Below are positions 2,727 through 41,317 of a stretch of DNA of 64,000 nucleotides, in pieces. The notes beneath the pieces are model-generated. The model was not told the DNA's origin and did not search any database. It saw nothing but the letters and a program-made list of their open reading frames with translations. The DNA is taken from NCBI RefSeq assembly GCF_053078305.1, contig NZ_CP166879.1; one strand, given 5' to 3'. Positions within the stretch are counted from its first letter, which is position 1; every line of letters begins with the position of its first letter. The translations under genes were made by a program, and so were the position numbers.

Positions 2727-3034
2727 AGAATCAACAAGGCTTTAGCCTGCCGGAGGTAATGTTGGCGATGGTGTTGATGGTGATGATTGTCACTGCGTTA
2801 TCGGGTTTCCAGCGAACATTAATGAACAGTCTTGCCAGCAGAAACCAGTACCAACAGCTCTGGCGGCATGGTTGGCAGCAAACGCAACTGCGCGCGATTT
2901 CGCCACCTACCAACTGGCAGGTCAACCGAATGCAGACATCGCAGGCGGGATGTGTCAGCATCAGCGTTACGCTAGTTTCACCCGGGGGCAGAGCAGGCGA
3001 GATGACCCGCCTGCATTGCCCGAATCGTCAGTAG
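2711..3034 (+). CDS. ppdC: Prepilin peptidase-dependent protein C
   Basis: ATG at 2711 gives 107 aa starting [27 protein letters not shown] (prepilin-like N-terminus). Confidence 0.85.
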
Positions 3035-3046
3035 TCAGGAGCCGCT

Positions 3047-6000
3047 ATGTTAAGGGTCTACCATTCCAATCGTCTGGACGTGCTGGAAGCGTTGATGGAG
3101 TTTATTGTCGAACGCGAACGGCTGGACGATCCTTTCGAACCAGAGATGATTCTGGTGCAAAGTACCGGTATGGCACAGTGGCTGCAAATGACCCTGTCGC
3201 AAAAGTTTGGTATTGCGGCAAACATTGATTTTCCGCTGCCTGCGAGCTTTATCTGGGATATGTTCGTCCGGGTGTTACCGGAGATCCCCAAAGAGAGCGC
3301 CTTTAACAAACAGAGCATGAGCTGGAAACTGATGACTCTGCTGCCGCAATTGCTGGAGCGCGAAGACTTTACCCTGTTGCGGCATTATCTGACTGACGAT
3401 AGCGACAAGCGAAAACTGTTCCAGCTTTCCTCAAAAGCGGCGGACCTGTTTGACCAGTATCTGGTCTATCGCCCGGAGTGGCTGGCACAATGGGAAACAG
3501 GACATTTGGTTGAAGGGCTGGGAGAAGCACAGGCCTGGCAAGCGCCGTTGTGGAAGGCTCTGGTGGAATATACCCATGAACTCGGGCAACCGCGCTGGCA
3601 CCGCGCGAATCTCTATCAGCGCTTTATCGAAACGCTGGAGTCCGCGACGACCTGCCCGCCGGGGTTACCTTCGCGCGTCTTTATATGCGGTATTTCCGCG
3701 TTACCGCCTGTTTATCTCCAGGCGCTCCAGGCGCTGGGTAAACATATTGAAATCCATCTCCTGTTTACCAACCCCTGCCGTTATTACTGGGGCGACATTA
3801 AAGATCCTGCTTATCTGGCGAAACTACTGACTCGCCAGCGCCGACACAGTTTTGAAGATCGCGAATTACCGCTATTTCGCGACAGCGAAAATGCCGGGCA
3901 GCTCTTTAACAGCGATGGTGAACAGGATGTCGGCAACCCGCTGCTGGCCTCATGGGGCAAGCTTGGGCGCGACTACATTTATCTCCTTTCTGACCTGGAG
4001 AGCAGCCAGGAGCTGGACGCCTTTGTCGATGTCACGCCAGATAACCTGCTGCATAACATTCAGTCTGACATTCTGGAACTGGAAAACCGCGCTGTTGCTG
4101 GTGTGAACATCGAAGAGTTTTCCCGTAGCGATAACAAACGCCCGCTTGATCCACTGGATAGCAGTATCACCTTCCACGTTTGCCATAGCCCGCAGCGTGA
4201 AGTTGAAGTTTTGCACGATCGCCTGCTGGCGATGCTGGAGGAAGACCCGACACTTACTCCGCGCGACATCATCGTGATGGTGGCCGACATCGACAGCTAC
4301 AGTCCGTTTATTCAGGCAGTGTTTGGTAGCGCACCTGCGGATCGTTACCTGCCTTACGCCATTTCCGACCGTCGTGCGCGGCAGTCACATCCGGTACTGG
4401 AAGCGTTTATCAGCCTGTTATCACTGCCTGACAGTCGCTTTGTGTCAGAGGATGTGCTGGCGCTGCTGGATGTGCCGGTGCTGGCGGCGCGGTTTGACAT
4501 CACCGAAGAAGGGCTGCGTTATTTACGCCAGTGGGTCAACGAGTCCGGCATTCGTTGGGGCATAGATGACGACAACGTTCGCGAGCTGGAACTCCCCGCC
4601 ACCGGACAACACACCTGGCGATTTGGCCTGACGCGTATGTTGTTGGGCTACGCGATGGAGAGCGCGCAGGGCGAGTGGCAATCGGTTCTACCTTATGATG
4701 AATCGAGCGGCTTAATTGCAGAACTGGTGGGGCATCTGGCTTCACTGCTAATGCAGCTAAACATCTGGCGTCGCGGGCTTGCACAGGAGCGTCCGCTGGA
4801 AGAGTGGTTGCCGGTTTGTCGCGATATGCTCAACGCCTTCTTCCTGCCGGATGCGGAAACCGAAGCGGCGATGACGCTGATCGAACAACAATGGCAGGCG
4901 ATTATCGCCGAAGGTTTAGGTGCGCAGTATGGCGACGCGGTGCCGCTGTCACTATTGCGTGATGAACTGGCACAGCGCCTGGATCAAGAACGTATCAGCC
5001 AGCGTTTTCTCGCCGGACCGGTTAACATTTGTACTCTGATGCCAATGCGTTCAATTCCGTTCAAAGTGGTTTGCCTGCTGGGAATGAACGACGGCGTTTA
5101 TCCACGTCAGCTTGCGCCATTGGGCTTTGACCTGATGAGCCAGAAACCGAAGCGTGGCGACCGTAGCCGTCGCGATGACGACCGCTATCTGTTCCTGGAA
5201 GCGTTAATTTCAGCGCAGCAAAAACTCTATATCAGCTATATCGGGCGTTCCATTCAGGATAACAGTGAACGTTTCCCGTCGGTACTGGTGCAGGAACTGA
5301 TCGACTACATCGGGCAAAGTCATTATCTACCGGGCGATGAAGCGCTCAACTGTGATGAAAGCGAGGCAAGGGTAAAAGCGCATCTTACTTGCCTCCATAC
5401 CCGAATGCCGTTTGATCCACAAAACTATCAGCCAGGCGAACGACAAAGCTATGCTCGTGAATGGCTACCTGCGGCCAGCCAGGCTGGTAAAGCACATTCT
5501 GAATTTGTTCAGCCGCTGCCGTTTACCTTACCGGAAACCGTGCCGCTGGAAACGCTACAACGATTCTGGGCACATCCGGTGCGGGCGTTCTTCCAGATGC
5601 GTTTGCAGGTGAACTTCCGTACTGAAGACAGCGAAATCCCCGACACCGAGCCATTTATTCTGGAAGGACTTAGCCGTTATCAAATCAATCAGCAGTTATT
5701 GAATGCACTGGTTGAGCAGGATGATGCCGAACGCTTGTTCCGCCGCTTCCGGGCGGCAGGGGATTTACCGTATGGCGCTTTTGGTGAAATTTTCTGGGAA
5801 ACACAGTGCCAGGAGATGCAGCAGCTTGCCGACAGAGTCATTGCCTGTCGCCAGCCGGGGCAGAGTATGGAAATTGATCTCGCTTGCAACGGTGTGCAGA
5901 TAACTGGTTGGTTGCCGCAGGTGCAGCCGGATGGCTTGTTGCGCTGGCGTCCCTCTTTATTAAGTGTGGCGCAGGGAATGCAACTTTGGCTGGAACACCT

Positions 6001-9479: not shown

Positions 9480-12400
9480 TGTCGCCGAGACACTAGATCC
9501 TTTGCGCTTGCCCTTACAGGGCGAGCGTCTGATTGAAGCCTCTGCCGGCACAGGCAAAACCTTTACGATTGCGGCGCTCTATTTGCGCCTGTTACTTGGA
9601 CTAGGCGGTTCCGCCGCCTTTCCCCGCCCGCTGACCGTTGAAGAACTGCTGGTGGTCACCTTTACCGAGGCTGCCACGGCAGAATTGCGCGGTCGTATCC
9701 GTAGCAATATCCACGAGTTGCGCATCGCCTGTCTGCGTGAAACCACCGACAATCCACTGTACGAACGTCTGCTGGAAGAGATCGACGATAAAGCGCAAGC
9801 CGCGCAGTGGTTGTTGTTAGCCGAACGGCAGATGGATGAAGCGGCAGTCTTTACTATTCACGGCTTTTGCCAGCGCATGCTCAACCTGAATGCCTTTGAA
9901 TCCGGCATGCTGTTTGAGCAGCAGCTGATTGAAGATGAGTCTCTGCTACGCTACCAGGCCTGCGCCGATTTCTGGCGTCGCCACTGCTACCCGCTGCCGC
10001 GTGAAATAGCCCAGGTCGTCTTTGAAACCTGGAAAGGGCCGCAGGCGTTGCTGAGCGATATTAATCGTTATCTGCAAGGCGAAGCGCCGGTTATCAAAGC
10101 ACCGCCGCCCGATGATGAAACGCTGGCTTCCCGTCACGCGCAAATTGTGGCGCGTATTGATACGGTAAAACAGCAGTGGCGCGACGCAGTGGGTGAACTG
10201 GATGCGCTGATCGAATCTTCTGGTATTGATCGACGCAAGTTTAACCGTAGCAATCAGGCTAAATGGATCGACAAGATCAGCGCCTGGGCAGAAGAAGAGA
10301 CAAACAGTTATCAGTTGCCGGAGTCGCTGGAAAAATTCTCCCAGCGTTTCTTAGAAGATCGCACGAAGGCCGGGGGGGAAACCCCGCGACATCCACTGTT
10401 TGAGGCGATCGATCAACTGCTTGCAGAACCATTGTCGATCCGCGATCTGGTGATCACCCGCGCATTGGCTGAGATCCGCGAAACAGTAGCGCGTGAAAAA
10501 CGCCGCCGTGGCGAATTGGGTTTTGATGACATGTTAAGTCGGCTCGATTCCGCGCTGCGTAGCGAAAGCGGTGAGGTGTTGGCAGCGGCGATCCGTACGC
10601 GATTCCCGGTGGCAATGATCGATGAATTTCAGGATACCGACCCCCAGCAGTACCGAATTTTTCGCCGTATCTGGCACCATCAGCCGGAAACCGCATTGTT
10701 GCTAATTGGCGACCCGAAGCAGGCCATATATGCATTCCGGGGTGCGGATATCTTCACTTATATGAAGGCGCGTAGCGAAGTTCACGCCCACTACACTTTA
10801 GACACCAACTGGCGTTCCGCACCAGGAATGGTGAACAGCGTGAACAAGCTTTTCAGCCAGACTGATGACGCGTTCATGTTTCGCGAAATACCGTTTATTC
10901 CAGTGAAATCAGCCGGGAAAAATCAGGCGTTACGTTTTGTATTTAAAGGTGAAACGCAGCCTGCGATGAAAATGTGGCTGATGGAAGGCGAAAGCTGCGG
11001 CGTTGGCGACTATCAAAGTACCATGGCGCAGGTATGTGCTGCGCAAATCCGCGACTGGCTACAAGCCGGACAGCGGGGCGAAGCGTTGCTGATGAACGGC
11101 GACGAAGCGCGTCCGGTGCGTGCTTCGGACATCAGTGTGCTGGTGCGCAGCCGCCAGGAGGCCGCCCAAGTGCGCGATGCCTTAACGTTGCTGGAAATCC
11201 CTTCCGTTTACCTTTCGAACCGCGACAGTGTTTTTGAAACTCTGGAAGCGCAGGAAATGCTTTGGTTGTTGCAGGCGGTGATGACGCCCGAACGTGAGAA
11301 CACCCTGCGTAGTGCGCTGGCAACGTCAATGATGGGGCTGAACGCGCTGGATATCGAAACGCTGAATAATGACGAACATGCGTGGGACGCGGTGGTCGAA
11401 GAGTTCGATGGTTATCGGCAAATCTGGCGCAAACGTGGCGTTATGCCGATGCTGCGGGCGCTGATGTCGGCGCGTAACATTGCAGAAAACTTGCTGGCAA
11501 CGGCAGGCGGTGAGCGGCGTCTTACCGATATCTTGCATATCAGCGAACTGCTACAAGAAGCCGGAACGCAGCTGGAAAGTGAACATGCGCTGGTACGCTG
11601 GTTATCGCAACATATCCTCGAGCCAGACAGTAATGCCTCCAGCCAACAAATGCGCCTCGAAAGTGATAAACATCTGGTGCAGATTGTCACGATCCATAAA
11701 TCGAAAGGGCTGGAATATCCGCTTGTCTGGTTGCCATTTATTACCAATTTCCGCGTCCAGGATCAGGCGTTTTATCACGATCGCCACTCGTTTGAGGCTG
11801 TTCTGGATCTTAACGCTGCGCCAGAAAGTGTCGATCTCGCGGAGGCCGAACGTCTGGCGGAAGATCTGCGTTTGCTTTACGTGGCGCTGACGCGTTCGGT
11901 TTGGCATTGTAGTCTCGGCGTTGCACCGCTGGTGCGCCGTCGTGGCGATAAAAAAGGTGACACCGACGTTCACCAAAGTGCGCTCGGGCGTTTGCTGCAA
12001 AAAGGGGAACCGCAAGATGCGGCAGGGCTTCGCACCTGTATTGAAGCGTTATGCGATGATGATATTGCCTGGCAAACGGCACAAACTGGTGATAACCAGC
12101 CATGGCAGGTTAATGATGCTTTAACTGCAGAATTGAATGCCAGGACATTACAACGATTGCCCGGCGATAACTGGCGCGTCACCAGCTACTCAGGTTTACA
12201 ACAGCGTGGTCACGGAATCGCTCAGGATCTGATGCCACGGCTGGATGTCGATGCCGCAGGCGTTGCCAGCATCGTTGAAGAACCGACGTTAACACCGCAT
12301 CAGTTCCCGCGCGGTGCGTCACCGGGGACGTTTTTGCACAGTTTGTTTGAAGACCTGGATTTTACCCAGCCGGTTGAACCGAACTGGGTGCGGGAAAAAC

Positions 12401-17791: not shown

Positions 17792-17868
<77 letters not shown>

Positions 17869-17900: not shown

Positions 17901-17977
<77 letters not shown>

Positions 17978-18010: not shown

Positions 18011-18087
<77 letters not shown>

Positions 18088-19481: not shown

Positions 19482-19579
19482 GCCGGATGCGGCGTGAACG
19501 CCTTATCCGGCCTACAAATCATGCAAATCCAAAATATTGCAGGAGTTATGTAGGCCTGATAAGCGTAGCGCATCAGGCA
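19482..19579. repeat. BIME / REP pair in the mltA-tcdA intergenic region
   Basis: GCCGGATGCGGCGTGAACGCCTTATCCGGCCTACA … TGTAGGCCTGATAAGCGTAGCGCATCAGGC, typical REP units in inverted orientation. Confidence 0.85.
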
Positions 19580-22327: not shown

Positions 22328-22555
22328 ATGAAAAAGACTGCCGCAATTATTTCTGCCTGTATGCTGACTTTTGCCCTGAGCGCCTGTTCCGGTTCGAACT
22401 ATGTGATGCACACCAATGACGGACGTACCATCGTCTCTGACGGCAAACCACAGACTGATAACGATACCGGTATGATTTCGTATAAAGACGCTAATGGCAA
22501 CAAACAGCAGATCAACCGTACTGACGTGAAAGAGATGGTCGAACTGGATCAGTAA
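22328..22555 (+). CDS. ygdI: Small lipoprotein (DUF903 family)
   Basis: 75 aa, [22 protein letters not shown] lipobox. Confidence 0.85.
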
Positions 22556-22571
22556 TTCGCGATCGCAAGGT

Positions 22572-22776
22572 AAAAAAAAGCACCGCAATTAGGCGGTGCT
22601 ACATTAATCACTATGGACAGACAGGGTAAATGTACAGGAAGTGAAAAAAGGTAGCTTTGCTACCATGGTCTGAATCGCAGACCAATTGCAAACACAACAA
22701 CACAACATCACAACCGTAAGCCAAAAGTTCACCAGAACACGCATTCCGATAAAACTTTTCGTTCCGGCTCAGGAAG
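22572..22776 (-). ncRNA. gcvB: GcvB small regulatory RNA
   Basis: Minus strand reads ACTTCCTGAGCCGGAACGAAAAGTTTTATCGGAATGCGTGTTCTGGTGAAC…GTTGTGATGTTGTGTTGTTGTGTTTGCAATTGG… (GU-rich R1 region) and ends in a hairpin plus T-run; divergent from gcvA. Confidence 0.9.
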
Positions 22777-22905
22777 TGCCGCCACTATAGGTATTTGCTG
22801 GTAGAAGCTCAACGGACAATTTATAATGGCTCAGATTAAAAAAACTAATAGGTTACACACTGTGATCTAATTGTTAAATTCATTTAACATCAAAGTTTAA
22901 AAGCC

Positions 22906-23823
22906 ATGTCTAAACGATTACCACCGCTAAATGCCTTACGAGTTTTTGATGCCGCAGCACGCCATTTAAGTTTCACTCGCGCAGCAGAAGAGCTTTTTGT
23001 GACCCAGGCCGCAGTAAGTCATCAAATCAAGTCTCTTGAGGATTTTTTGGGGCTAAAACTGTTCCGCCGCCGTAATCGTTCACTCCTGCTGACCGAGGAA
23101 GGGCAAAGCTATTTCCTCGATATCAAAGAGATATTTTCGCAATTAACCGAAGCGACGCGTAAACTCCAGGCCCGTAGCGCCAAGGGGGCGTTGACGGTCA
23201 GTTTACTCCCCAGTTTCGCCATTCATTGGTTGGTTCCGCGACTTTCCAGCTTTAATTCAGCTTATCCGGGAATTGACGTTCGAATCCAGGCGGTTGATCG
23301 TCAGGAAGATAAGCTGGCGGATGATGTTGATGTGGCGATATTTTATGGTCGGGGCAACTGGCCGGGGCTACGGGTGGAAAAACTGTACGCCGAATATTTA
23401 TTGCCGGTGTGTTCGCCGCTACTGCTGACTGGCGAAAAACCCTTGAAGACCCCGGAAGATCTGGCTAAACATACGCTATTACATGATGCGTCACGCCGTG
23501 ACTGGCAGACATATACTCGTCAATTGGGGTTAAATCATATCAACGTTCAGCAAGGGCCAATTTTTAGCCATAGCGCCATGGTGCTGCAAGCGGCTATCCA
23601 CGGGCAGGGAGTGGCGCTGGCAAATAACGTGATGGCGCAATCTGAAATTGAAGCCGGACGTCTTGTTTGCCCGTTTAATGATGTTCTGGTCAGTAAAAAC
23701 GCTTTTTATCTGGTTTGTCATGACAGCCAGGCAGAACTGGGTAAAATAGCCGCCTTTCGCCAATGGATCCTGGCGAAAGCCGCTGCTGAACAAGAAAAAT
23801 TCCGCTTTCGTTATGAACAATAA
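22906..23823 (+). CDS. gcvA: Glycine cleavage system transcriptional regulator (LysR family)
   Basis: 305-aa ORF with a LysR-type N-terminal HTH. Confidence 0.95.
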   Translation: MSKRLPPLNALRVFDAAARHLSFTRAAEELFVTQAAVSHQIKSLEDFLGLKLFRRRNRSLLLTEEGQSYFLDIKEIFSQLTEATRKLQARSAKGALTVSLLPSFAIHWLVPRLSSFNSAYPGIDVRIQAVDRQEDKLADDVDVAIFYGRGNWPGLRVEKLYAEYLLPVCSPLLLTGEKPLKTPEDLAKHTLLHDASRRDWQTYTRQLGLNHINVQQGPIFSHSAMVLQAAIHGQGVALANNVMAQSEIEAGRLVCPFNDVLVSKNAFYLVCHDSQAELGKIAAFRQWILAKAAAEQEKFRFRYEQ

Positions 23824-40948: not shown

Positions 40949-41317
40949 GTCGACAGGGAGTCAGACAACGAAGTGAACATCAGGATGATGACACTTCTGA
41001 AGGACACACCAGGATGGTGTTTCAGGGAAAGGCTTCTGGATGAAGCGAAGAGGATGACGCAGGACGCGTTAAAGGACACCTCCAGGATGGAGAATGAGAA
41101 CCGGTCAGGATGATCCGGTGGGTCAGGAAGGCCAGGGACACTTCAGGATGAAGTATCACATCGGGGTGGTGTGAGCAGGAAGCAATAGTTCAGGATGAAC
41201 GATTGGCCGCAAGGCCAGAGGAAAAGTTGTCAAGGATGAGCAGGGAGCAACAAAAGTAGCTGGAATGCTGCGAAACGAACCGGGAGCACTGTGAATACAG
41301 TGCTCCCTTTTTTTATT
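40949..41317 (+). ncRNA. csrB: CsrB regulatory RNA (CsrA-sequestering)
   Basis: Starts GTCGACAGGGAGTCAGACAACGAAGTGAACATCAGGATGATGACAC…; carries many CAGGATG / AGGA repeats and ends in a strong hairpin (GGGAGCACTGTGAATACAGTGCTCCC) plus T-run. Confidence 0.92.

Follow-up and report, generated by a model that had tools for sequence, protein, structure and literature searches.

The GcvB small RNA gene between ygdI and gcvA in an Escherichia coli chromosome, and the stem-loop common to the 3' ends of gcvB and ygdI

Genes and features of the locus

The locus described here lies in a stretch of 64,000 nucleotides of contig NZ_CP166879.1 (NCBI RefSeq assembly GCF_053078305.1), which as a whole is called the window and from whose first letter all positions are counted. 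Between ygdI and gcvA, both read from the plus strand, it holds the gene for the small RNA GcvB on the minus strand:

22328..22555, plus strand: ygdI coding sequence, a 75-aa DUF903 lipoprotein with lipobox LSAC (open reading frame list; Pfam DUF903, 83.9 bits; K-12 and RefSeq annotation)
22572..22777, minus strand: gcvB, the GcvB sRNA of 206 nt, with transcription start site (TSS) 22777 and annotated 3' end 22572 (Rfam RF00022; K-12 b4443)
22778..22905, no strand assigned: divergent control region of gcvA and gcvB, 128 nt (sequence)
22784..22812, minus strand: sigma-70-like gcvB promoter, -35 TTGAGC, 17-nt spacer, -10 TATAGT (consensus scan, 9/12 matches)
22906..23823, plus strand: gcvA coding sequence, a LysR-type regulator (open reading frame list; Pfam HTH_1 and LysR_substrate; annotation)

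The GcvB covariance model of Rfam (RF00022) matches 22572..22777 on the minus strand with 199 bits against a gathering threshold of 42 (E = 1.1e-46), and the match is full length, covering model positions 1-204 of 204. Over gcvB and its flanks (22540-22830), 290 of the 290 shared aligned positions are the same as in E. coli K-12 MG1655. The K-12 annotation places the 206-nt ncRNA gcvB (b4443) at 2942696..2942901, which maps to window 22777..22572 (window position = 2965473 - K-12 position), with gcvA (b2808) upstream and divergent, and ygdI (b2809) downstream, convergent and 16 nt off. Because the Rfam match is far above threshold, the sequence is 100% identical to K-12 gcvB and the neighbours are gcvA and ygdI, we regard it as very nearly certain that 22572..22777 (minus strand) is the E. 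coli gcvB gene; this, including the stem-loop common to both 3' ends, is the best explanation of the locus overall, and nothing speaks against the identity of gcvB.

A preliminary description of this DNA had already placed the GcvB sRNA between ygdI and gcvA, on the minus strand and divergent from gcvA. It had proposed an Rfam search and an alignment with annotated gcvB as checks, and had named the lack of a GcvB match in Rfam as the result that would speak against it. Such a match is present, the alignment with b4443 is without a mismatch, and gcvB (TSS 22777, minus strand) and gcvA (start 22906, plus strand) do diverge, in agreement with the K-12 annotation. The interval it gave, 22572-22776, is right at the 3' end (22572) and falls one nucleotide short at the 5' end, the real position being 22777; the sRNA and its terminator had thus been placed within one base from the letters alone.

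A 701-nt query spanning ygdI, gcvB and gcvA was covered over at least 80% of its length in 5,423 of 5,426 complete E. coli genomes, the region reaches an identity of 95% or more in 5,423 of the 5,426, and 5,385 records match the query at 99% identity or better. A single genome of the 5,426 is without any match to the query; the matches include one on a plasmid record, and certain genomes are matched at two places. The best-matching RefSeq/PGAP record, NZ_CP024147.1, is 100% identical across the locus (2807-3156) and carries no gcvB ncRNA feature from ygdI to gcvA; the feature is present in the annotation of NC_000913.3, and its lack in NZ_CP024147.1 is an annotation gap, with no difference in sequence. 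The gcvB gene has been under study since 2000, and its locus is an ordinary one, already known in full detail.

Other RNAs are encoded elsewhere in the window. A full-length CsrB sRNA lies at 40958-41317 (plus strand; Rfam RF00018, 384 bits against a gathering threshold of 71), with repeated GGA hairpins and a terminator, and there is a short Rfam match to the ES036 (CssrF) sRNA at 19515-19557 (plus strand; 46.5 bits against 37.6). Three tRNA genes of 74 nt, with equal scores and a spacing of about 110 nt, are found at 17795-17868, 17904-17977 and 18014-18087 (minus strand). The copy at 17795-17868, the sole one in the alignment shown, has the anticodon loop CUCAUAA (anticodon CAU) and a non-standard pair at position 1:72, features that we take to be typical of initiator tRNA-Met.

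Within the control region between gcvA and gcvB there are CTAAT motifs at 22845 and 22867, presumably putative GcvA binding sites. The promoter-like site at 22784..22812, a call made purely by match to consensus, lies where a promoter serving a TSS at 22777 would be expected. GcvB has been described as an Hfq-dependent sRNA of about 200 nt, divergent from gcvA (PMC9299463), under the control of GcvA/GcvR and induced at high glycine (PMC9299463; PMC2515195), and the same E. coli sequence brings about Hfq-dependent repression of mRNAs for amino-acid and peptide transporters (PMC9299463; PMC2515195). The genes adjoining gcvB in E. coli are given as gcvA and ygdI (PMC2676305), and the synteny of gcvA/gcvB/ygdI in Salmonella is tabulated as '<- -> <-' (PMC2515195). 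A glycine-responsive promoter under GcvA/GcvR would then drive the 206-nt, Hfq-dependent, trans-acting GcvB divergently from gcvA, and its single-stranded seeds, the G/U-rich R1 together with R2 and R3, would pair with a large set of mRNAs from amino-acid and peptide transport and metabolism, leading to repression of these mRNAs. The control by GcvA/GcvR, the function of the seeds and the 3'-end positions discussed below are taken from the literature on the identical sequence.

Elements of the GcvB RNA and their conservation

The 206-nt RNA has a minimum free energy (MFE) fold of -62.1 kcal/mol (z = -3.63 against shuffles), with its stem-loops arranged as in Rfam. Upstream of the terminator, the elements are as follows:

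22718..22770, minus strand: stem-loop 1, GcvB nt 8-60 (Rfam structure line and MFE fold)
22685..22714, minus strand: R1 seed, G/U-rich, GcvB nt 64-93, GUUGUGAUGUUGUGUUGUUGUGUUUGCAAU (sequence positions)
22667..22683, minus strand: stem-loop 2, GcvB nt 95-111 (Rfam structure and MFE fold)
22644..22664, minus strand: stem-loop 3 with U6, GcvB nt 114-134, an internal terminator-like site (terminator scan, call at 22664..22650)
22628..22643, minus strand: R2, conserved single-stranded, GcvB nt 135-150, CACUUCCUGUACAUUU (sequence and Rfam consensus)
22615..22626, minus strand: R3 seed, about GcvB nt 152-163 (published mutation positions)

R1, R2 and R3, the seed regions of GcvB (PMC9299463), are thus all present in the window sequence, and the centroid fold leaves most of R1 unpaired. 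The published point mutations of R3, at G156, G160 and C162 (PMC9299463), correspond to window 22622 (G), 22618 (G) and 22616 (C); since they land on the expected bases, the register of the GcvB numbering is confirmed. In an alignment of 26 diverse Enterobacterales sequences prepared for the analysis of covariation, the basal helix of stem-loop 1 is kept throughout, and the basal pair of stem-loop 3 shows a compensatory GC<->AU change in 6 of the 26; compensatory changes are found nowhere else.

For a wider comparison, representative bacterial genomes were scanned with a DNA pattern of the form R1...R2, which gave at least 120 Enterobacterales loci; as the pattern contained both motifs, the invariance of R1 and R2 across species is partly by construction. 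Among the matches listed, gcvA lies upstream of GcvB wherever the sequence sufficed, and the terminal hairpin with its T-run is recognisable in 116 of 120. The position of ygdI in these 116 loci varies:

60 of the 116 loci listed: ygdI homologue in convergent orientation, 8-37 nt past the U-tract (Escherichia, Salmonella, Citrobacter, Enterobacter, Kosakonia, Buttiauxella, some Serratia, others)
15 of the 116 loci listed: ygdI 43-280 nt away (Yersinia, Rahnella, Hafnia, others)
41 of the 116 loci listed: ygdI absent for at least 400 nt (Photorhabdus, Xenorhabdus, Proteus, Providencia, Morganella, Edwardsiella, Raoultella, some Kluyvera)

The terminal stem GCACCGC/GCGGTGC (in RNA, GCACCGC/GCGGUGC) is found unchanged in 114 of the 116 listed loci, with 50 different sequences in its loop, and it is equally invariant in the 41 of them that have no ygdI within 400 nt. 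This invariance, with or without an adjoining ygdI, argues that the hairpin is primarily an element of GcvB, conserved as part of the sRNA independently of ygdI, and the tight convergence of ygdI and gcvB would on the same comparison be a feature of one part of the Enterobacterales. In the 26-sequence alignment the terminal stem is likewise unvaried except for one C-to-U change, which keeps a G-U wobble; because it hardly varies, its covariation says nothing for or against pairing, and the hairpin is supported by its fold energy and by the free variation of the loop. The invariance of the stem at the level of sequence exceeds what pairing alone would require.

One of the matches to the R1...R2 pattern, of 83 nt and with an unusually long gap, came from an uncultured bacterium (CAIQMU010000096.1, about 10043-10125). 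The stretch examined there has no terminal T-run, gcvA or ygdI, and the match may be a divergent GcvB or due to chance.

The stem-loop between ygdI and gcvB

The region in which the two genes meet contains the gcvB terminator, the ygdI 3' UTR and the 3' ends mapped by Term-seq in K-12 (Adams et al. 2021, PMC7815308, Supplementary file 1), the growth conditions of the table sheets having been assigned from their order in the file caption:

22572..22600, minus strand: Rho-independent terminator of gcvB, an 8-bp stem with a 6-nt loop (22579-22600) followed by U8 (22572-22579) (terminator scan)
22556..22604, plus strand: ygdI 3' UTR (Term-seq 3' ends and plus-strand hairpin)
22603, plus strand (K-12 2942870, minus strand): ygdI 3' end of the 'primary' class, signal 36,630 in LB at OD 0.4
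22604, plus strand (K-12 2942869, minus strand): ygdI 3' end of the 'primary' class, signal 1,164,820 in LB at OD 2.0
22603, plus strand (K-12 2942870, minus strand): ygdI 3' end of the 'primary' class, signal 441,780 in M63
22579, minus strand (K-12 2942894, plus strand): gcvB 3' end, signal 134,815 in LB at OD 0.4

The ygdI stop codon, TAA at 22553-22555, is followed by a 16-nt spacer (22556-22571) that is the same in K-12, by a run of eight A (22572-22579, U8 on the minus strand) and by the hairpin AGCACCGC-AATTAG-GCGGTGCT at 22579-22600, a palindrome that occurs once in the window, with 0 expected by chance. The gcvB 3' end (22572) is the 17th base past the TAA, in keeping with the preliminary description, which had put the terminator 17 nt after the ygdI stop. 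Six of the eight pairs of the stem are G-C, and the terminator folds at -16.9 kcal/mol (z = -4.72). A terminator scan of the interval gave two calls, both on the minus strand: stem-loop 3, which has U6, and the terminal hairpin, which has U8. The plus strand had none. Transcription of gcvB ends, Rho-independently, at the 8-bp G+C-rich hairpin and U8, and the RNA has the Rho-independent terminator with a long U-tail that serves as the Hfq-binding module of class I/II sRNAs.

Read on the ygdI strand, the same hairpin has a folding energy of about -15 to -16 kcal/mol. It is followed by ACATTAATCA, whose first 8 bases include 3 T, and there is no U-tract; in all 116 of the 116 loci listed in the cross-species comparison, no more than 3 of 8 bases are T in the tail on this strand. 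The plus strand, with A8 upstream and ACATTAATCA downstream, does not have the succession of A-tract, hairpin and T-tract of the canonical intrinsic bidirectional type.

In all three conditions the mapped 3' ends of ygdI lie 3-4 nt past 22600, where the pairing of the hairpin ends (PMC7815308). As they are past 22600, the whole palindrome is within the ygdI mRNA, and the overlap between the ygdI and gcvB transcripts amounts to 25-26 nt when reckoned from the Term-seq end of gcvB, or 32-33 nt from its annotated end. The two are convergent genes whose 3' ends overlap at an intergenic stem-loop. The ygdI mRNA would run through the A8 tract and the palindrome and end 3-4 nt beyond, so that both transcripts finish in one stem-loop, and these observations support the hairpin as a 3'-end structure common to both genes. 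The convergence of both genes on one hairpin, as given in the preliminary description, is accordingly borne out by the geometry and by the ygdI ends at 22603/22604; the word 'terminator', as applied to the ygdI strand, needs qualifying, there being no U-tract and no plus-strand call. Because of the missing U-tract, the hairpin would on the ygdI strand appear to be mainly an element that defines and stabilises the 3' end, and not a canonical intrinsic terminator.

The full-length 3' end of gcvB is missing from the curated list in LB at OD 2.0 and in M63, in which only ends internal to R1 appear (PMC7815308). These lie inside the seed at window 22705 and 22710 (minus strand), or GcvB nt 73 and 68, with a signal of 132,094 in LB at OD 2.0 and 1,692 in M63 (PMC7815308), and are probably decay intermediates. 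No 3' end is listed in the Term-seq data at stem-loop 3 and its U6 (22644-22664; Adams et al. 2021, PMC7815308). A region of Rho-dependent termination on the gcvB strand is reported at about window 22339 (minus strand; K-12 2943134, plus strand), antisense to the 5' part of ygdI, with a Rho score of 10.25 and p = 2e-71 (PMC7815308, Supplementary file 2), which suggests that read-through past the gcvB terminator is stopped by Rho within the antisense of ygdI.

Origin of the ygdI 3' end and comparison with known systems

Term-seq reports 3' ends, not termination events, and several mechanisms are possible for the end of ygdI: weak termination independent of a U-tract, read-through followed by exonucleolytic trimming, or termination at the stem-loop assisted by collision. 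These bear on the mechanism on the ygdI strand and leave the identity of gcvB untouched. That the end at 22603/22604 arises by processing, with transcription reading through into antisense gcvB and 3'-to-5' exonucleases trimming the transcript back to the hairpin, has in our estimate close to, though not quite, an even chance of being correct. It agrees with the lack of both a U-tract past the hairpin and a terminator call on the plus strand, with the stability of the plus-strand hairpin (about -15 kcal/mol) and with the location of the end just 3-4 nt beyond the stem, as would fit the stalling of an exonuclease. Both RNase II and PNPase stall at stable hairpins. A point against processing is that no Rho-dependent region is found on the ygdI strand just past the ygdI stop, among coordinates of the form 29427xx-29428xx of K-12 in one condition (PMC7815308).

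A true bidirectional terminator, in which either a weak intrinsic terminator acts on the ygdI side or polymerases colliding head-on are positioned by the stem-loop, as has been put forward for many convergent pairs in E. coli, is a more doubtful explanation, though one with a precedent. The genes are a convergent pair whose overlapping 3' ends are centred on one stem-loop, and bidirectional terminators between convergent E. coli genes are a known class, Rho-independent and unlike the intrinsic ones, according to the account of Ju et al. 2019 relayed in bioRxiv 10.1101/2022.10.23.513370. Collision would, however, call for convergent transcription, and the ygdI signal is highest in LB at OD 2.0 (1.16 million) and in M63 (442 thousand), where the full-length gcvB end is unlisted, and lowest (36.6 thousand) in LB at OD 0.4, where the gcvB 3' end is strong, with the proviso that signal values may not compare between growth conditions. 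Since its end is strongest where that of full-length gcvB is not listed, ygdI seems to have no strict need of heavy convergent gcvB transcription. Searching the literature for the phrase 'bidirectional terminator' in connection with gcvB yielded unrelated uses alone, such as a plasmid terminator. A canonical terminator of its own wherever ygdI stands apart from gcvB would have implied that ygdI relies on the gcvB hairpin in E. coli. Among the 15 loci with a distant ygdI, 13 have no canonical terminator on the ygdI strand in the gap either, so that this comparison is uninformative on the dependence of ygdI on the hairpin. However it arises, a 3' end of ygdI at a hairpin without a U-tract is a small case of how convergent bacterial genes terminate.

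It is also conceivable, but in our judgement quite improbable, that the stretch of 25-33 nt over which the ygdI 3' UTR is perfectly complementary to the terminator and Hfq-binding module of GcvB is used for regulation. Abundant ygdI mRNA, in stationary phase and minimal medium, would then pair or interfere with GcvB, by cleavage of the duplex or by transcriptional interference, and so help to switch GcvB off; the reverse direction could be envisaged as well. If this were true, ygdI and gcvB would form a cis-antisense regulatory pair, going beyond tightly packed neighbours. Hfq CLASH data contain a single chimera of the ygdI 3' UTR, with aldB, and none with GcvB.

The suggestion that GcvB has a dual function and also encodes a 46-codon protein (22604..22744, minus strand) can be set aside as scarcely credible: a mechanical reading frame does exist, with an ATG at GcvB nt 34, but the frame is not conserved, its length ranging from 4 to 59 codons over the 63 loci with a recognisable 5' end among the matches listed (no stop within the extracted stretch in 2 of the 63, no ATG at this position in 3 of the 63), and the ATG sits inside the helix of stem-loop 1.

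The reading that we prefer remains that of E. coli gcvB, with a stem-loop in common with ygdI at its 3' end. Compared with K-12 GcvB (b4443, RF00022), there is no difference: all 206 nt and both flanks are identical, and the neighbours, spacing, structure elements and terminator are alike, the window being another E. coli chromosome with the same allele. The stem-loop resembles the bidirectional terminators of Ju, Li and Liu 2019 and Wang et al. 2022 (a preprint) in that two convergent transcripts, with an overlap of about 25-33 nt, share one intergenic stem-loop as their end; it differs from them in that the gcvB side, with its U8, is an intrinsic terminator of the textbook kind and the ygdI side is without a U-tract. 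It also resembles the hairpins that stabilise 3' ends (REP-type or derived from terminators), a stable G+C-rich hairpin lying a few nucleotides from the ygdI 3' end. It differs from these in being the reverse complement of an sRNA terminator, and not a dedicated element of the mRNA, and in that its conservation tracks GcvB, not ygdI.
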